A program made the translations under genes and the position numbers. Below are positions 3,747 to 59,520 of a DNA stretch of 64,000 nucleotides, piece after piece. The notes under the pieces are model-generated. The model was given only the letters and a program-made list of their open reading frames with translations, made no database searches and was not told the origin of the DNA. Location: NCBI RefSeq assembly GCF_055900595.2, contig NZ_CM148325.1; one strand, given 5' to 3'. Numbering within the stretch: the first letter of the stretch is position 1; each line of letters starts with the position of its first letter.

Positions 3747-3995
3747 CTAAAAATGACACGCACTGCAGCGTGCTTTAATGGGTTTCTCACGATCGTACCG
3801 CTCTGCTCCTCGCTAAGTTGTTCTGTGAGTTATAGTTATAGAGAAATCACGGGTACGAATGTTGAACAGATGGCGACGTCACCTGTTCAACGACCAACCA
3901 CACGGCCCTCATTACGACCCCTGAACACAAACGGTAATGGCAAATGTCATTAAATATTAGTAAGATAGCCTCTTTACATAAAATCTCTTAATATT

Positions 3996-5639
3996 ATGCG
4001 CCAGGTATTATCGTCTCTTTTGGTGATTGCTGGACTTGTGAGTGGTCAGGCAATCGCCGCGCCTGAATCCCCCCCGCATGCTGATATCCGCGACAGCGGT
4101 TTTGTCTATTGCGTCAGCGGGCAAGTCAACACCTTTAACCCATCCAAAGCGAGCAGTGGGTTAATTGTCGATACCCTTGCCGCCCAGTTTTATGATCGAC
4201 TCCTGGATGTCGATCCCTATACCTATCGCCTGATGCCGGAACTTGCCGAAAGCTGGGAAGTGCTCGACAACGGCGCGACCTATCGCTTCCACCTGCGTCG
4301 CGATGTTCCGTTTCAAAAAACCGACTGGTTTACTCCCACTCGTAAAATGAATGCCGACGATGTGGTGTTTACCTTCCAGCGAATTTTTGACCGTAACAAC
4401 CCGTGGCATAACGTCAACGGCAGCAACTTTCCCTACTTCGACAGCCTGCAATTTGCCGATAACGTTAAAAGCGTCCGCAAACTGGATAATCATACCGTTG
4501 AGTTCCGACTCGCCCAGCCAGATGCTTCTTTTTTGTGGCACCTGGCGACCCATTATGCATCGGTCATGTCGGCAGAATATGCCCAGAAGTTAGAGAAAGA
4601 AGATCGCCAGGAACAACTCGACCGTCAGCCGGTCGGCACTGGACCGTATCAGTTATCGGAATACCGCGCCGGGCAATTTATTCGCCTACAACGTCATGAT
4701 GACTTCTGGCGCGGCAAACCGTTAATGCCGCAGGTGGTGGTGGATTTAGGCTCCGGCGGCACCGGACGTCTTTCGAAACTTCTGACAGGTGAATGCGACG
4801 TTCTGGCCTGGCCTGCTGCCAGTCAGCTATCCATTTTGCGTGACGACCCACGCTTGCGTTTAACGCTGCGCCCGGGGATGAATGTCGCCTATCTGGCATT
4901 TAACACTGCTAAACCGCCGCTAAATAATCCCGCTGTCCGCCATGCGCTGGCACTGGCGATCAATAACCAGCGTCTGATGCAATCCATCTATTATGGTACG
5001 GCTGAAACGGCAGCCTCTATTTTACCGCGCGCCTCGTGGGCCTATGACAACGAGGCTAAAATTACTGAATACAATCCGGCGAAATCGCGCGAACAGTTGA
5101 AGGCGTTGGGGCTGGAAAACTTAACGCTGAAACTGTGGGTGCCAACACGTTCGCAGGCGTGGAACCCCAGTCCACTGAAAACCGCCGAACTGATTCAGGC
5201 GGATATGGCGCAGGTTGGCGTAAAAGTGGTGATTGTGCCGGTAGAAGGTCGTTTTCAGGAGGCGCGGTTGATGGATATGAGCCATGATCTGACGTTATCC
5301 GGTTGGGCGACAGACAGTAACGATCCGGACAGTTTCTTTCGTCCGCTACTGAGCTGCGCAGCAATACATTCCCAGACCAACCTCGCCCACTGGTGCGATC
5401 CGAAATTCGACAGCGTGTTGCGTAAGGCGCTCTCCTCGCAGCAGCTAGCGGCGCGTATTGAAGCCTATGACGAAGCGCAAAGTATTCTGGCGCAGGAATT
5501 GCCCATTTTGCCGCTGGCGTCGTCATTGCGCTTGCAAGCCTACCGTTACGATATCAAAGGGCTGGTTCTTAGCCCGTTTGGTAACGCCTCCTTTGCTGGT
5601 GTGTATCGCGAGAAACAGGATGAGGTGAAAAAACCATGA
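3996..5639 (+). CDS. sapA: peptide ABC transporter periplasmic binding protein
   Basis: 547-aa ORF with signal peptide and family-5 solute-binding protein translation; first gene of a five-gene operon. Confidence 0.92.
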
Positions 5640-32501: not shown

Positions 32502-32873
32502 AGCTCCTCCTTAATGACAGGGTTGCGAAGCCCTGATTCTCTTCAGGGTGAATATTAAAGATAACACAAACATTGCGTAACGATTTGATAACAACCCAAA
32601 TTGATAAAAGAGGAGAAACCTTGTGGCAAAGCAAATGAAAACCCCGCCGCAGCGGGGTCAGGGATCAGTGAGTAATGATCCAGAGGAGTTCGGCCCAGAA
32701 GAGCATCGACAGAGAAAATGCGCCCATCCAGGACCAATATTTCATATTTGTGTTGATCATAGGCTACACCCTTAACGGTTATTACTTTGTGTTGAGATAA
32801 CTCAACCTGTTATTGCTGCGGTGTATTAAAAGCCCTTTAATTCATTAAAAATGGGTAATAAGAATGATGATAA

Positions 32874-46775: not shown

Positions 46776-46820
46776 ATGAAAGCGATTTTCGTACTGAAAG
46801 GTTGGTGGCGCACTTCCTGA
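46776..46820 (+). CDS. trpL: trp operon leader peptide
   Basis: atgaaagcgattttcgtactgaaaggttggtggcgcacttcctga encodes [14 protein letters not shown] with tandem Trp codons. Confidence 0.92.
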
Positions 46821-46862
46821 AACGGGCAGTGTATTCACCATGCGTAAAGCAACCAGATACCC

Positions 46863-46890
46863 AGCCCGCCTAATGAGCGGGCTTTTTTTT
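46863..46890 (+). terminator. trp attenuator
   Basis: agcccgcctaatgagcgggc hairpin followed by T8. Confidence 0.9.
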
Positions 46891-54639: not shown

Positions 54640-55146
54640 ATGAATCGTATTGAACATTATCATGACTGGTTACGTGACGCCCACGCAATGGAAAAGCAAG
54701 CCGAATCTATGCTTGAATCCATGGCCAGCCGCATAGATAATTATCCTGAGCTACGCGCTCGTATTGAACAACATCTTAGTGAAACCAAAAACCAGATTGT
54801 ACAACTGGAAACTATTCTTGATCGTAATGACATTTCACGCTCAGTCATTAAAGATTCTATGAGTAAAATGGCTGCACTTGGGCAGTCAATCGGTGGTATA
54901 TTCCCTTCTGATGAAATAGTCAAAGGCTCTATTAGCGGATATGTCTTCGAGCAATTTGAAATCGCCTGTTATACCTCACTCTTAGCAGCAGCAAAAAATG
55001 CCGGTGATACAGCCTCAATTCCGATTATCGAAGCGATTTTAAATGAGGAAAAGCAAATGGCCGACTGGCTGATTCAGCATATTCCGCAAACAACGGAGAA
55101 ATTTTTAATTCGCTCTGAAACTGATGGCGTAGAAGCGAAGAAATAA
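54640..55146 (+). CDS. yciE: DUF892/ferritin-like stress protein
   Basis: 168-aa YciF paralogue immediately downstream. Confidence 0.85.
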   Translation: MNRIEHYHDWLRDAHAMEKQAESMLESMASRIDNYPELRARIEQHLSETKNQIVQLETILDRNDISRSVIKDSMSKMAALGQSIGGIFPSDEIVKGSISGYVFEQFEIACYTSLLAAAKNAGDTASIPIIEAILNEEKQMADWLIQHIPQTTEKFLIRSETDGVEAKK

Positions 55147-55170
55147 TACCCTTTATACCATGTCCTTATT

Positions 55171-55196
55171 GACCCCGTAATTACGGGGTCATTTTT
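55171..55196. terminator. bidirectional terminator between yciE and the ompW remnant
   Basis: gaccccgtaa / ttacggggtc perfect hairpin followed by atttttg. Confidence 0.75.
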
Positions 55197-55204
55197 GTGC
55201 GGAA

Positions 55205-55321
55205 TTAAAAACGATATCCTGCTGAGAACATAAACACCCACGGATCAAGACGTACGCTATCGTGTTGCTGCGCACCACCCAGCTTATAATTTGCGGTGGT
55301 GTCAATATCCATGTACCAGAC
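55205..55321 (-). pseudogene. ompW: 3-prime fragment of ompW (last ~38 codons)
   Basis: Reverse-strand translation ...VWYMDIDTTANYKLGGAQQHDSVRLDPWVFMFSAGYRF-stop matches the OmpW C-terminus as I recall it; no upstream ompW sequence beyond about 55321. Confidence 0.8.
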
Positions 55322-55660
55322 TGGCAGGTTTTAAAAAATCAAATAAGATATTGTATCTGAAAGAAAAAACAGGATTTTGAGATGCTTTTTTATACCGTTT
55401 TTCAGCGTTTTTAACTGCCTGATTTTATTGAAATCTTTTTTAGTTTTGCAGAAAGGATTTTTTGATCGATTGCTTTAATTTTATACATTCCTGATAACGG
55501 AAATTTTTTACCCGTTGACAGTTTTTATCCTCCGGGGCTATATTTCCAACGCGTCAGCAAAATCTGGCGTCGGGATTGGAACCCCGGATGTTTACGGAGC
55601 GATATGAGACGCGCCCGCGTCTTTTTTCATATCGTTTGCACAGTCACATTCGCGATTTAT

Positions 55661-55737
55661 GGCGGGCTGTGTGGGGGAGCCGAAAGGCTCGCCGGTTTCC
55701 GTACCCGGTAGTTCCAACCCCGCACAGTTCGCCACCA
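55661..55737 (+). other. structured element 1 (tRNA/tmRNA-3-prime-like, ends CCACCA)
   Basis: 77 nt; 13-bp outer stem GGCGGGCTGTGTG / CGCACAGTTCGCC (with G-U pairs) enclosing a GAGCC-GAAA-GGCTC hairpin; shares a 26-nt core with element 2. Confidence 0.4.
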
Positions 55738-55791
55738 TGATGATTGGAACCTGAAGGTGGCGATAATTTTCAAATGTACGGAGTTATCGTT

Positions 55792-56352
55792 ATGCCCACT
55801 CAAATTTCTGTCGACACTCTTCCTGCAATCACCCACAACCAGGTCCCCGTTATTACAACTGAACTTCTGGCGCAGTTATACGGAACAAAAATCAAAAACA
55901 TTTCTGATAACTTTCTGAACAACACGACGCGATTCGTGGTAGGAAAGCATTACTTTAAAATTGAAAAAAACGAATTACGCGAGTTTAAGAACAGACCCGA
56001 AACAATCGGGTTAGTTGGTAAAAATGCCCGCTCCCTTATCCTCTGGACAGAACGTGGCGCAGCCCGCCATGCCAAAATGCTCGAAACCGATCAGGCATGG
56101 GAAGTGTTCGAAAAACTGGAAGACTGTTATTTCAGCCAAAAACAACCACCAGCAACACAAAACTCACCCACCCCAAATGATGGATGCGCATTACTGATCC
56201 ACTTTGATAAACACGGTCAGGTAGAGTTCACAGAAAAAGTCCCCGCCGATGCGATGGTATGCACTCTGGAACGGTTTAAATTTTATCTGGAGCAACACGG
56301 CTGGCTCGTTGCCCGTAAAGAACAACTGGTGGAAAGGCTGATGCAGCTTTAG
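55792..56352 (+). CDS. phage antirepressor-like protein with N-terminal ORF6N/KilA-N-type domain
   Basis: Start taken at the ATG with GGAG RBS; translation ...VPVITTELLAQLYGTKIKNISDNFLNNTTRFVVGKHYFKIEKNELREF... resembles ORF6N-family phage proteins. Confidence 0.6.
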   Translation: MPTQISVDTLPAITHNQVPVITTELLAQLYGTKIKNISDNFLNNTTRFVVGKHYFKIEKNELREFKNRPETIGLVGKNARSLILWTERGAARHAKMLETDQAWEVFEKLEDCYFSQKQPPATQNSPTPNDGCALLIHFDKHGQVEFTEKVPADAMVCTLERFKFYLEQHGWLVARKEQLVERLMQL

Positions 56353-56402
56353 CAGATATAACAAGTGTTTTTTCTCGTATGCACGCGCACATATGAATTA
56401 TT

Positions 56403-56459
56403 GTGGGGCGCATGGGGGAGCCGAAAGGCTCGCCGGTTCAACTCCCGCCAGCTCCACCA
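56403..56459 (+). other. structured element 2 with ssrA (tmRNA) 3-prime-end-like sequence
   Basis: Core tgggggagccgaaaggctcgccggtt shared with element 1; last 25 nt GGTTCAACTCCCGCCAGCTCCACCA match my recollection of the tmRNA 3-prime terminus; followed by a T5 run. Confidence 0.45.
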
Positions 56460-56584
56460 TTTTTGACAGGACTGCAACCGGACATCGACAATAAAAACAG
56501 ATAATTACGGACACTGACCAGACAACAAACAGACCTGAACAAGACAAAAATATACACGTGAAATGCACGTGCACTTTATAAAAA

Positions 56585-56612
56585 CCCCAGATTTCACAGT
56601 CTGGGGTTTTTC
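56585..56612 (+). terminator. rho-independent terminator
   Basis: ccccagatttcacagtctgggg hairpin followed by ttttt. Confidence 0.6.
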
Positions 56613-56665
56613 TGTTTGTAAATAATGGTAACAAAAACACATCACCTTTTGGCGTTCCGTTCCTC

Positions 56666-56715
56666 TTGACACTGTTTATCCATACAGTTAAAAATAACAC
56701 TGTATACAAACACAG
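56666..56715 (+). promoter_or_regulatory. promoter with LexA (SOS) box upstream of the dinI-like gene
   Basis: TTGACA at 56666-56671, AT-rich -10 near 56689-56695, CTGT-N8-ACAG box ctgtatacaaacacag at 56700-56715, about 15 bp before the start codon. Confidence 0.65.
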
Positions 56716-56730
56716 TGTAGAGGGATTTTT

Positions 56731-56979
56731 ATGCGTATTGAAATCTGTATCGCTAAAGAAAAATTCAGTAAAATGCCAAAAGGCTCTGTACCTGCTCTAC
56801 AACAGGAAATGTCTAGCCGTATCAGAAAACGATATGACGATGTGGAGGTTATAGTAAAATCCGCCAGTAATGACGGACTGACCATTTTAAGAGCCGTAGA
56901 TAAAGAAAACGCTCAGAAGTTCATACAGGAAACGCTGCAGGAAGTCTGGGAAACTGCTGATGACTGGTTTTTTCACTAA
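56731..56979 (+). CDS. DinI-family DNA-damage-inducible protein (prophage-borne)
   Basis: 82 aa; [16 protein letters not shown]...[14 protein letters not shown] resembles DinI (MRIEV...WESADDWF); GAGGG RBS. Confidence 0.75.
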
Positions 56980-57879: not shown

Positions 57880-59520
57880 TCAGAACTCAAAATTCACACC
57901 AGCATTCCACGATGCGGATGACCCACCTGCAGCAACTGCAACTTTTCCTGCCACATTCTCTGTGAAACGGTAGCCCACGCCCACCGCAATGGCCTGCTCA
58001 TCACGGTAACCACCAACGGCTGCTGTCGCGTTAAATTTTCCAACACTGTATGGCTGGAAAAGACCGGCCAGTGCCGCGCTCTGGGCTGCACTCTCCCTTA
58101 ACTCCTTCCGGTTCTCTTTAATCTGCTCCTGCATATTATTCATTCTCTCTGTCGCCATCTTCTGCCAGGCTTCCGTCAAATCCAGACGATGACTGTTATT
58201 CCTTATCGCTGCTGTATTTGAGGCTATTGCTGCATCCGTCTGCGCCACCGCTGCCGATGTGACTGCAATAATATCCCTGCTGAGTTCATCACGTACTGCT
58301 GTAACCTGACTGTCAGTATGAGCACGGGCATCTCTGTATACACCGCCTATCTCACCACGCAGACTGTCTCCCTCTGCCTTCAGTTCATCACGTACTGCTG
58401 TGACCTGACTGTCAGTATGAGCACGGGCATCTCTGTATACACCACCTATCTCACCACGCAGACTGTCTCCCTCTGCCTTCAGTTCATCACGTACTGCTGT
58501 GACCTGACTGTCAGTATGAGCACGGGCATCTCTGTATACACCGCCTATCTCACCACGCAGACTGTCTCCCTCTGCCTTCAGTTCATCACGTACTGCTGTG
58601 ACCTGACTGTCAGTATGAGCACGGGCATCTCTGTATACACCACCTATCTCACCACGCAGACTGTCTCCCTCTGCCTTCAGTTCATCACGTACTGCTGTGA
58701 CCTGACTGTCAGTATGAGCACGGGCATCTCTGTATACACCGCCTATCTCACCACGCAGACTGTCTCCCTCTGCCTTCAGTTCATCACGTACTGCTGTGAC
58801 CTGACTGTCAGTATGAGCACGGGCATCTCTGTATACACCACCTATCTCACCACGCAGACTGTCTCCCTGTGATTTCACTTCAACCCCAAGGTTGCGGGTA
58901 CGATTATCCAGCTCCACGACGAATTCTTTAACAGGGACTGTCTGAGCATTTCCGTCAGCCCTTCCGTCAGCAGTGATTCGGCCTGATGAATCCAGAACAA
59001 AATTCTGGCCTTCAACTACATTTTTATACAATGATGACAATCCCGATGTTGTATTACTAATTTTAATAAAATCCTCAGCGGTACCACCAGCATTAACAGC
59101 GGCGATATAATCATCCTTGTTTTCTGGCTTGATTATTTTTTGTAGTGATTCTTTTGTATCAACAATGGACTTTATATCTTCTGCTTTTATATTTCTGATG
59201 TTTTCGGCTTTTAATGCATCTGAGTAGATGGGGTAAGTTAGCAAATCCTGAGCAACAATATGCCTAGCATTCTCAGGAGCTGCTAATATAGCACGCGTAA
59301 TAGAATCATTCGGGACAATACGCCCTGTATTAGCTCCAGTAATAGTATTAATAAGATTAACATCATTACCTTTTGATATTACTGCCGCACCATTATCATA
59401 CAGAGTAACCTCATATCCATCTACATTAAAACTCTCTTCTGCCATAACCCCCACAGAGTAACATAACAGCGCACCGGTAACCGCCATTGCCAATACATTC
59501 TTTGCCATTATAAATTTCAT
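57880..59520 (-). CDS. YadA-like trimeric autotransporter adhesin (Eib-like), prophage-encoded
   Basis: 546 aa; signal peptide; C-terminus [62 protein letters not shown] matches the YadA membrane anchor; coiled-coil stalk with six 33-aa repeats. Confidence 0.8.
58285..58875. repeat. six tandem copies of a 99-bp unit inside the adhesin gene
   Basis: Near-identical 99-bp units encoding [33 protein letters not shown]; successive copies alternate a synonymous ccgcc/ccacc difference, so the array is effectively 3 x 198 bp. Confidence 0.9.

Follow-up and report, generated by a model that had tools for sequence, protein, structure and literature searches.

A C4 antisense RNA and an apparent C4-ssrA chimera on either side of a prophage antirepressor gene

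In the stretch of DNA analysed here, a 64,000-nt segment of contig NZ_CM148325.1 (NCBI RefSeq assembly GCF_055900595.2; hereafter the window), the ORF6N antirepressor gene ant1 is flanked by two structured elements with a shared core. The region represents the edge of a lambdoid prophage integrated in ompW. The upstream element (element 1) is an already known phage regulatory RNA, C4 (Rfam RF01695), here called C4-1. The downstream element (element 2) appears, from its homologies on either side of a short joint, to be the 5' half of another C4 gene (C4-2) fused to an ssrA attachment-site relic from another phage. The account of the whole locus as a C4-1/ant1 control module plus a recombination scar in element 2 is considered highly probable.

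The edge of the ompW prophage

The prophage edge is marked by a 3' remnant of ompW (55206-55331, - strand), an ompW-type att region that is recognized through the RefSeq annotation of relatives, as LH50-c, LR-31 and E24377A all have an incomplete OmpW pseudogene annotated at the corresponding position. To the left of this remnant are yciG/F/E and trpEDCBA. For ompW prophages, an att of 121 bp has been reported (PMC8112680). LH50-c carries a hybrid prophage that combines the ompW edge with a yecE-side integrase; this integrase lies at the far end and abuts yecE.

This edge carries a control module like those of P1 immI and Gifsy-1, consisting of isrK, a C4 antisense RNA and an antirepressor. 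A promoter scan finds a promoter-like site, TTGACA-18-TATATT (55515-55544, + strand), and directly upstream of C4-1 lies the sRNA isrK (55551-55627, + strand), which matches Rfam RF01394 over its full length with 72.7 bits (gathering score 50). A terminator hairpin of isrK is called by the terminator scan at 55606-55623 (+ strand).

Element 1 and the antirepressor module

The covariance-model scan with Rfam identifies element 1 as a complete C4 antisense RNA (55655-55739, + strand). The match to RF01695 reaches 78.9 bits (gathering score 45; E = 8.8e-14) and covers positions 1-87 of the 87 in the model. At -48.5 kcal/mol (z = -6.1), the fold of element 1 is far more stable than the folds of shuffled sequences. 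Its outer stem, given as 13 bp in the initial annotation, is actually 16 bp long in the minimum-energy fold or 17 bp in the Rfam consensus, and this acceptor-like stem is followed by GCCACCA at the 3' end. Three targeting blocks are located on the + strand of C4-1: TCCGTAC in the loop of hairpin 2 (55698-55704), GTTCCAA (55711-55717) and TCGCCACC (55729-55736).

Among the readings offered in the initial annotation were phage-encoded tRNA-like RNAs and remnants of att sites from a composite element in the ompW prophage. The former describes element 1, a C4 RNA of an already known family (RF01695). The latter fits element 2, with its ssrA core and dinI-side arm, and is not supported for element 1.

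The gene ant1 (55792-56352, + strand), downstream of C4-1 on the same strand, encodes an ORF6N antirepressor of 186 amino acids. This assignment is based on Pfam ORF6N (PF10543, E = 2.5e-20), on a full-length match to PHROG 2379 'anti-repressor' (E = 2.6e-93) and on the RefSeq homologue WP_001143132.1; the NCBIfam scan assigned no family to ant1. In the ant leader, three boxes on the + strand are the exact complements of the C4-1 blocks, giving three complementary pairs of 7-8 nt each: TTGGAAC (55744-55750), GGTGGCGA (55756-55763) and GTACGGA (55776-55782), the last of which overlaps the Shine-Dalgarno sequence GGAG of ant1 (55780-55783). All three box pairs covary across the five C4 alleles that were compared, namely C4-1 of the window and E24377A, C4-2 of E24377A, Stx1c_1589, Stx2a_F765 and PhiR12; examples are GTTCCAA/TTGGAAC, GTTCGAA/TTCGAAC and GTGCAAA/TTTGCAC.

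Complementarity together with covariation argues strongly that C4-1 pairs with the ant leader. C4-1 would be a working C4 RNA that comes from the same transcript as ant. The C4 RNA of P1/P7 is among the known substrates of RNase P (Hartmann 1995, via the review PMC4919922), and by analogy RNase P would recognise the long acceptor-like stem and the 3' CCA of C4-1. The loop of hairpin 2 and the two blocks on the 3' side would then pair with the three boxes of the leader. C4-1 is thus predicted to silence ant in the lysogen, where the antirepressor would stay untranslated because one C4 box covers the Shine-Dalgarno sequence.

The two halves of element 2

The 5' half of element 2 consists of a leader and the 5' half of C4-2 (56368-56438, + strand) and is recognized by homology to E24377A; the C4 model starts at 56396. 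Over positions 55001-56437, the window is 97.6% identical to the ompW prophage of E24377A, and an 84-nt query that spans the C4-2 remnant (56353-56436) is 96.4% identical there. In E24377A, C4-2 is a complete C4 (L007, 2544-2627) with a score of 58.4 bits and a fold z of -3.0, and it is followed by a second ORF6N gene. The 5' half of C4-2 is also 88-91% identical to C4 genes upstream of the antirepressors of Stx phages. The remnant in the window holds the 5' strand of the outer stem and hairpin 1 and ends before hairpin 2. Aligned to the Rfam C4 model, element 2 has hairpin 2 deleted and an outer stem with non-canonical pairs, and it scores 20.9 bits, below the gathering score of 45. A role as a second functional C4 was rejected on this sub-threshold score, the missing hairpin 2 and the absence of all three targeting blocks; a target is lacking as well. 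Since blocks and target are lost, the chimera would be inert as a regulator.

The 3' half of element 2 (56435-56459, + strand) has a different origin. The initial annotation had stated that the last 25 nt of element 2 match the 3' terminus of E. coli ssrA, and the alignment bears this out exactly: GGTTCAACTCCCGCCAGCTCCACCA is identical at 25/25 positions to the last 25 nt of ssrA in K-12 MG1655 (L001, 932-956). This core covers the T-loop, the 3' strand of the T-stem, the 3' acceptor strand and CCA, and it also equals the ssrA 3' ends in O103 RM8385, CP-1639 and PhiR12_1. No further ssrA-derived stretch of at least 14 nt is present in the window. Element 2 was likewise rejected as a tmRNA or tRNA gene, as ARAGORN reports neither kind of gene in the window, and the match to the Rfam tmRNA model is truncated and reaches 20 bits (gathering score 47), with only the last ~30 nt confidently aligned.

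Downstream of the core, homology to the arms of ssrA phages identifies the dinI-side arm of an ssrA-type attP (56460-56730, + strand). In this arm, the motif ACACGTGAAATGCACGTGCAC (56554-56574, + strand), which recurs in int-side arms, is followed by a strong terminator-like hairpin found by the terminator scan (56580-56611, + strand), ~120 nt downstream of element 2, and by two LexA-box-like sites (56672-56687 and 56700-56715, + strand). The arm leads to a dinI-like gene (56731-56979, + strand), the first of a block common to ssrA-resident prophages, which matches NCBIfam NF007893 DinI with E = 5.2e-19 and 68.5 bits, below the curated cutoff of 111. A 'DinI-like family protein' is annotated beside ssrA in several genomes. 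Positions 56431-56974, which run into dinI, are 84.6% identical to PhiR12_1, 80% to O103 RM8385 and 76% to CP-1639, and in RM8385 and CP-1639, the records that include the host junction, the arm directly follows an intact ssrA and is itself followed by dinI.

The terminus of element 2 is a relic of an ssrA-type phage attachment site within the ompW prophage and is accompanied by ~540 bp of dinI-side arm. There is no second ssrA core in the window, and an ssrA-type integrase is not adjacent. Because the window lacks a second core, no reciprocal junction was found in 5,426 genomes, and the integrase of LH50-c abuts yecE, the core is regarded as a relic half-site and not as part of a working att pair.

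The joint and the fate of the chimera

In the alignment, the window follows E24377A through the ant1 stop codon and the 5' half of C4-2 and continues with the ssrA 3' end and a PhiR12-type arm. The two homology tracts, one running to 56437 and the other starting at 56431, overlap only in CGCCGGT. The ancestral prophage, of the kind still seen in E24377A, would have had the tandem modules C4-1/ant1 and C4-2/ant2. Recombination within the microhomology GGTT would then have joined the 5' half of C4-2 to the att core and dinI-side arm of an ssrA phage, with the break at the border of the T-loop portion of that core, so that the 3' half of C4-2, ant2 and the downstream DNA were replaced. Among 5,426 genomes, the 84-nt query mentioned above, which spans the C4-2 half and extends 2 nt into the ssrA core, detects the chimera with 100% identity in just 15 records, most of them from poultry isolates. 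This complete identity makes it look like a recent scar.

The resemblance between the two elements was described correctly in the initial annotation. The 26-nt core TGGGGGAGCCGAAAGGCTCGCCGGTT, with its GAGCC-GAAA-GGCTC hairpin, has exactly two copies in the window, each on the + strand (55672 and 56413), and by a rough estimate made without a tool ~5e-7 chance repeats of 26-mers are expected in 64 kb. Both elements terminate in CCACCA. The view that they are paralogous also stood. Each belongs, as the regulator, to one of two successive C4-antirepressor modules, the second of which is intact in E24377A. The same 26-nt direct repeat on both sides of the gene and the shared CCACCA ends could suggest a small mobile ORF6N cassette with the two elements as its terminal direct repeats or att sites, a suggestion that did not hold up. 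A cassette-like distribution was not observed. C4-ant units occur singly or in tandem in E24377A and Stx phages, and in every case the C4 precedes its own ant and fits the leader of that gene through covarying boxes. The ant1 segment was found only at the edge of ompW prophages or in ordinary homologous modules, and in no case as an insertion with these repeats at its ends. Outside the 26-nt core, the elements also differ in both their outer-stem strands and their 3' halves. A mobile cassette is hence extremely improbable, and the elements are read as parts of successive C4-ant modules.

It was also considered whether element 2 is a functional structured RNA, tRNA-like or resembling the tRNA-like domain (TLD) of tmRNA and derived from the ant1 3' UTR, or a selected terminator of ant1. 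Element 2 is probably located in this 3' UTR. The isrK-type terminator between ant1 and C4-2 carries an 18-nt deletion in the window, and read-through from ant1 is therefore likely. A GC-rich stem of 7 bp (GUGGGGC/GCUCCAC) closes the structure, with CA and then UUUUU downstream of it, the tmRNA register gives a G3-U pair in the stem and an ACCA end, and the T-arm, as read from the sequence, is retained with one mismatch. Against this, the fold of element 2 is no better than those of shuffled sequences (z = -1.4 and -0.9), both the C4 and the tmRNA models give sub-threshold scores, and ARAGORN is negative. For a terminator role, also raised in the initial annotation, the observations are mixed: the closing stem with CA and U5 is visible in the fold, but this fold is branched and no more stable than those of shuffles, and element 2 is absent from the calls of the terminator scan, which places its strong hairpin 120 nt downstream. 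The 15/15 identical copies give neither a covariation nor a conservation signal, and each half of element 2 has a separate and obvious origin. A functional RNA in its own right, or a terminator kept by selection, is judged quite unlikely. A more specific form of this idea, which is very improbable, is that RNase P cuts the ant1 read-through transcript, in the manner of C4 precursors, into a ~55-nt mimic of the tmRNA tRNA-like domain, a prophage decoy against trans-translation; with its G3-U alanine identity pair, T-arm and ACCA, such a mini-RNA might be charged by AlaRS or bound by SmpB.

Formation of the joint

With element 2 read as a fusion, two routes to the joint between C4-2 and ssrA were compared. 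In the first, an ssrA-type integrase would have taken the hairpin-2 region of C4-2 for a secondary site and recombined attP with it ('prophage-in-prophage'), and the rest of the nested arrangement would then have been lost through recombination between prophages. That ompW prophages receive other phages has been documented (PMC8112680). In attP variants from IMG/VR, the identity to ssrA starts at or just left of TTCAACT, and TUM9803 and L026 have the same core and arm with other left partners and the same edge. The possibility that the C4-like half is simply the natural int-side arm of an ssrA-type attP was rejected, as this position is ssrA-like or AT-rich in PhiR12 and six IMG/VR contigs.

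In the second route, microhomology-mediated illegitimate recombination or short-homology recombination of the Red/RecET type between co-resident lambdoid phages would have made the joint without an integrase, and the break at the att core would be a coincidence or an older module boundary in the donor phage. The shared sequence at the joint is just 4-7 nt (GGTT, or CGCCGGT with one mismatch), and GGTT fits illegitimate recombination equally. The reciprocal junction, searched for with a synthetic query of the PhiR12 int arm, the 3' half of C4-2 and ant2, was found in none of the 5,426 complete E. coli genomes. The 3' half of C4-2 is absent from the window and from the LH50-c hybrid prophage, and the E24377A-type 3' half with ant2 (at least 95% identity) occurs only in the five genomes with an intact C4-2. 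The likeness of C4-2 to the att core is also statistically ordinary. Intact C4-2 agrees with the core at 17-18/29 positions, a level reached at 26 other positions in the window, and thus C4-2 is not singled out as a preferred secondary site; this chance-level likeness was discarded as statistical support for a pseudo-att site.

The TUM9803 record adds to this second route. Its arm is the closest relative of the window arm at 97.5%, against 76-85% for the three ssrA-associated records, and it lies beside an ecpE/ykgJ-type att near serU/yodB and not at ssrA; the relic ssrA core is already a fossil there. This arrangement indicates that core and arm form a portable block that is reshuffled among phages of other integration specificities. 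A simple exchange does not yield the TUM9803 junction, which is shifted by a few nucleotides, and the donor search gave no ssrA-resident prophage with a right-hand side at least 95% identical.

The position of the break speaks against recombination without an integrase. The phage-side break lies no more than a few nucleotides from the 5' edge of the T-loop part of the att core in ssrA itself, C4-2, TUM9803 and L026, which amount to three or four independent contexts, and random breaks in a phage of ~50 kb are not expected to coincide there. The microhomology route is seen as possible though somewhat doubtful, and the integrase route is weakly favoured over it. A broader proposal is that the T-arm-like hairpin of the C4 genes of resident prophages serves ssrA-phage integrases as a secondary att site, whereby an antirepressor module is knocked out; it is put forward tentatively as a realistic possibility.

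Significance

Element 2 looks like neither a new kind of RNA nor a mobile cassette but like a scar left by phage mosaicism. For annotation, these results are of use because tRNA-like elements that end in CCA beside a prophage antirepressor are usually C4 antisense RNAs, and the targeting rules of C4 can here be read directly from three covarying box pairs. The chimera is also a clear example of the reshuffling of lambdoid prophages at attachment-site cores, in which one relic ssrA core and dinI arm are seen with three neighbours: true ssrA, an ecpE/ykgJ-type att and half a C4 gene. Were the joint the product of an integrase, the 'prophage-in-prophage' phenomenon would extend to secondary sites inside phage sRNA genes, and such events would be seen to be able to delete an antirepressor module and thereby alter the ease of prophage induction. 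The findings are of specialist interest and do not overturn current understanding.

Comparison with known systems

Element 1 resembles the C4 RNA of the P1/P7 immI region (c4-icd-ant) in its long outer stem, two internal hairpins and 3' CCA, and also in its position directly upstream of an antirepressor on the same strand, with complementary boxes in the leader, one of them over the ribosome-binding site. Unlike in P1, its host is a lambdoid prophage in ompW, isrK precedes C4, and no icd-like ORF was identified between C4-1 and ant1. The C4 RNA of P1 has two complementary blocks (a'/b'), whereas C4-1 has three. Element 2 differs from the P1/P7 C4 RNAs in being just the 5' half of such a gene and in failing the C4 model.

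In Gifsy-1 of Salmonella, control by isrK-orf45-anrP has been shown, and the order is the same as that in the window: isrK with a leaky terminator, a conserved region of ~100 nt and the antirepressor (PMC4825925). The orf45 region gives rise to a processed short RNA, STnc1160 (PMC4825925), and it takes the place that C4 has in the window. The Gifsy-1 region has been read as a small ORF, orf45, that is translationally coupled to anrP through an overlapping AUGA (PMC4825925). Such a coupling arrangement is not seen here, where the start codon of ant (55792) is ~50 nt past the end of C4.

The 3' half of element 2 with its arm, terminator, LexA boxes and dinI is collinear over core plus ~540 bp (76-85% identity) with the attL/attP of ssrA phages such as CP-1639, PhiR12 and those of O103/O111/O157. 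It differs from these sites in its left partner, half a C4 gene instead of ssrA or an int-side arm, and in lying ~1.1 kb inside an ompW prophage with no adjacent ssrA-type integrase.

Element 2 is also comparable to the 'prophage-in-prophage' sites attB-in-PP_1/2/3 (PMC8112680), in that an att-type sequence of a different phage family is situated close to an ompW prophage edge and inter-prophage inversions and hybrids such as LH50-c occur. A site of the element 2 type is absent from the main text of PMC8112680, in which ssrA appears twice in another context. In TUM9803, the same ssrA core abuts sequence like attB-in-PP_2 (ecpE/ykgJ). In the published attB-in-PP sites, chromosomal attB regions have been copied together with their chromosomal flanks, namely yecE, ykgJ/ecpE and ompW (PMC8112680). 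Unlike these, element 2 is attL-like, with a target half, a core and a phage arm, is of the ssrA type, and has a phage sRNA gene as its target half.

Organization of the prophage edge

Left of the prophage lie, in order, trpLEDCBA with the Trp leader (46797-46890), yciG/F/E and a 126-nt remnant of the ompW 3' end (55206-55331, minus strand), according to the ORF list and the RefSeq annotation of near-identical genomes. The lambdoid prophage edge starts at about 55331 and runs rightwards. On the plus strand, it carries a promoter-like site and isrK (55551-55627; Rfam RF01394, 72.7 bits) just upstream of element 1 (55655-55739), followed by the ORF6N antirepressor gene ant1 (55792-56352), element 2, a terminator-like hairpin (56580-56611), two tandem LexA-box-like sites (CTGT-N8-ACAG; 56672-56687 and 56700-56715) directly upstream of a dinI-like ORF (56731-56979); tail-fibre genes on the minus strand come next. 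The LexA-box-like sites suggest SOS control of the dinI-like gene. A YadA-like tail-fibre gene contains tandem repeats of ~99 nt (~58231-58882), whose copy number varies between the window, the near-identical genome LH50-c and LR-31. An STnc180 sRNA match (202.7 bits) was observed at 32631-32833 on the minus strand. Prophages at ompW are a known class, into which other phages are known to integrate (PMC8112680).

The two elements terminate in CCACCA and share a 26-nt core, TGGGGGAGCCGAAAGGCTCGCCGGTT, at 55672 and 56413, which is absent elsewhere on either strand of the window. Comparison with ssrA also bore out that GGTTCAACTCCCGCCAGCTCCACCA (56435-56459) is an exact copy of the last 25 nt of Escherichia coli K-12 ssrA (L001 932-956). 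Neither identity is attributable to chance in 64 kb.

Element 1 is a C4 antisense RNA

Element 1 belongs to the C4 family and shows three of the features that define it. The Rfam model RF01695 matches 55655-55739 over its full length with 78.9 bits (gathering score 45), and the adjacent ant1 is an antirepressor gene by its matches to Pfam ORF6N (E = 2.5e-20) and to PHROG 2379 'anti-repressor' (E = 2.6e-93). Functionally, a C4 is defined by its ability to pair with the leader of the gene that it controls, and three exact blocks of element 1 (C4-1) are complementary to three ant1 leader boxes. TCCGTAC in the hairpin-2 loop (55698-55704) pairs with GTACGGA (55776-55782), which overlaps the Shine-Dalgarno sequence GGAG; GTTCCAA (55711-55717) pairs with TTGGAAC (55744-55750), and TCGCCACC (55729-55736) with GGTGGCGA (55756-55763). 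All three pairs are kept with altered sequences in the C4 of E24377A (C4-2), phiSTEC1589-Stx1c, Stx2a_F765 and PhiR12_1, for example as GTTCGAA/TTCGAAC, GTGCAAA/TTTGCAC, TCACCACC/GGTGGTGA and TGGTTGAT/ATCAACCA. Because blocks and boxes covary between alleles, the sequences provide good evidence that the C4 antisense mechanism operates at the ant1 leader.

The fold of element 1 is unusually stable (z = -6.1), with an outer stem of 16-17 bp in the predicted fold and Rfam consensus rather than the 13 bp first counted. Its tRNA-like look, which comes from the long acceptor-like stem and the terminal CCA, would fit the C4 family by analogy; the P1/P7 C4 precursor is given as an RNase P substrate in Hartmann et al. 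1995, as cited in PMC4919922. The order isrK-X-antirepressor has been studied in Gifsy-1, where X is described as orf45, from the region of which the processed short RNA STnc1160 derives (PMC4825925); in the window, C4 occupies the place of X. A putative 54-codon, TTG-initiated ORF (55576-55740, plus strand) overlaps both isrK and C4-1, where Gifsy-1 has its 'orf45'.

The 5' half of element 2 derives from a second C4 gene

In a genome search, the 84 nt at 56353-56436 matched a site in each of five genomes, E24377A among them, at 96.4% identity; from 56368 on, they matched sites in numerous Stx phages and ~850 genomes of E. coli at 88-91%. Wherever such a site was examined, a complete C4 gene begins there, with an antirepressor gene ~55 nt further downstream. 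E24377A shares the ompW prophage edge of the window. Downstream of ant1, that genome has a full C4 (L007 2544-2627; 58.4 bits, fold z = -3.0) and then a second ORF6N gene. The ancestral layout, as reconstructed from these sequences, is a tandem of C4-1/ant1 and C4-2/ant2 modules. Two such modules explain the paired elements around ant1, so that the mobile cassette between direct repeats, one possible reading in the initial annotation, is not needed.

In the interval from the ant1 stop codon to C4-2, an alignment gap (window 56365-56372 compared with ~2485-2503 of loci L008, L009 and L010) marks an 18-nt deletion in the isrK-type terminator hairpin that normally stands ahead of a C4 and is seen in Stx phages; no isrK is found upstream of C4-2. 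On both counts, the tandem module is itself the product of an earlier deletion or recombination. A second complete isrK-C4 pair is present in the early region of the LH50-c hybrid prophage (L011 9776-9964; C4 84.3 bits), within an ORF annotated 'ash family protein', and isrK/C4 RNA genes may be over-annotated as protein.

A relic ssrA half-site forms the 3' half of element 2

In the alignment with E24377A, the window follows that genome from the ant1 end through GTGGGGCGCATGGGGGAGC.GAAA.GCTCG.CGGT, then changes to TCAACTCCCGCCAGCTCCACCA, followed by TTTTTGACAGGACTGCAACCGGACA, a continuation found 3' of ssrA in ssrA-integrated prophages. Local BLAST gave 97.6% identity to the E24377A prophage for 55001-56437 and, for 56431-56974, 84.6% to PhiR12_1, 80% to O103 RM8385 and 76% to CP-1639; the two tracts overlap in CGCCGGT only. 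The gene order in RM8385 and CP-1639 is smpB, ssrA, dinI-side arm, dinI, tail fibres. Judging from this order, element 2 has as its 3' half a phage-borne copy of the ssrA 3' end (att core) still joined to its dinI-side arm, in line with the earlier suggestion of an att relic of an ssrA-type element inside the ompW prophage. The C4 half is not part of a normal attP, since the int-side arm is unlike C4 in PhiR12 and in six IMG/VR attP contigs. Element 2 has the core and arm sequence of an ssrA-type att but neither a partner site nor a cognate integrase, and its 3' half is therefore a relic half-site.

A motif of the dinI-side arm, ACACGTGAAATGCACGTGCAC (56554-56574), reappears in ssrA-type int-side arms (PhiR12 L005, L042, L044 and L046) as ATGCACGTAAAATGCAC(G/T/C)TG. 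Such motifs are candidate arm-type integrase binding sites.

Origin of the joint

On the phage side, the sequence breaks inside GGTT, where the T-loop segment TTCAACT has its 5' edge. In attP variants, ssrA identity starts at or just left of this edge (...GACACGGG|TTCAACT; ...GACGCGAG|TTCAACT; ...GGCTGTGGG|TTCAACT in L026). Strain TUM9803 has an arm nearly identical to that of the window with a different left partner (...GACGTGCCTGCGGT|TTCAACT), namely an ecpE/ykgJ-type att sequence, the 'attB-in-PP_2' of PMC8112680. With at least three left partners at essentially the same joining position, the ssrA core and dinI arm together are a portable block.

This common position suggests an integrase-mediated exchange at the att core, the tentatively preferred origin of the C4-2/ssrA joint, with a probability approaching even. 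Hairpin 2 of C4-2 (CCGG-N8-CCGG) could replace the T-arm (CGGG-N7-CCCG) as integrase site, and the remainder of the nested prophage would then be lost through inter-prophage recombination. The evidence for such an exchange is indirect: a reciprocal junction was found in none of the 5,426 complete genomes searched, the resemblance between C4-2 and att core (17-18/29) is reached 26 times by chance in the window, and the joint in TUM9803 is displaced by a few nt. Microhomology-mediated illegitimate recombination, although somewhat less likely, is a serious rival. However, this rival has to contend with the joining of core and arm to at least three left partners at essentially one position.

In TUM9803 (L047 ~3900-4025), the ecpE/ykgJ-type att directly adjoins the relic core and arm, and a truncated remnant of the serU tRNA lies ~330 nt away beside yodB; att relics appear to be stacked at this site. 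In L026 (IMGVR_UViG_2922305957_000001), an unrelated coding sequence ends 36 nt before GGG|TTCAACT, and the 375 nt upstream of the core match none of the loci compared; this left side may represent a further type of attP arm or a further secondary junction.

Function and distribution of element 2

Element 2 cannot work as a C4: it has lost hairpin 2, both 3' targeting blocks and the 3' outer-stem strand, and the target boxes and ant2 are missing as well. Nor is it a tmRNA: ARAGORN was negative, and the Rfam tmRNA model gave 20 bits (gathering score 47), aligning confidently over the last ~30 nt only. Its fold is no more stable than shuffled sequence (z = -1.4 and -0.9). Element 2 is outside both families; the description as a phage-encoded tRNA-like RNA stands for element 1.

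Element 2 occurs in 15 records among the 5,426 complete genomes, with no difference among them across the 84-nt query; one strain accounts for several of these records through re-assembly, and poultry is the source of most. It therefore looks like one event of recent date and shows no sign of conservation. Because of the deletion in the preceding terminator, element 2 is probably transcribed as the ant1 3' UTR. A contribution to termination is conceivable, as its 7-bp closing stem precedes CA and U5; the terminator scan of the window did not call it and found a much better hairpin at 56580-56611. Processing of the chimera into a mimic of the tRNA-like domain of tmRNA is a remote possibility, suggested by the sequence coincidence.

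Mosaicism and comparison with known systems

The LH50-c prophage (L011; NZ_CP100500.1 2339000-2388500) has the ompW remnant at one end and, at the other, a terminal integrase abutting yecE/yecN/cmoA, ~640 kb away in K-12 coordinates. This arrangement implies a chromosomal inversion or a hybrid between an ompW and a yecE prophage, and illustrates the fluidity of these loci.

Element 1 is thus a known RNA, and element 2 a recombination scar that had not been described, although its mechanism is ordinary. The locus is of value as an annotation aid and as an illustration of how att cores give rise to mosaicism. The main text of PMC8112680 mentions neither an ssrA-type site nor a C4 target; the prophage-in-prophage integration that it describes in ompW prophages is the closest published phenomenon.
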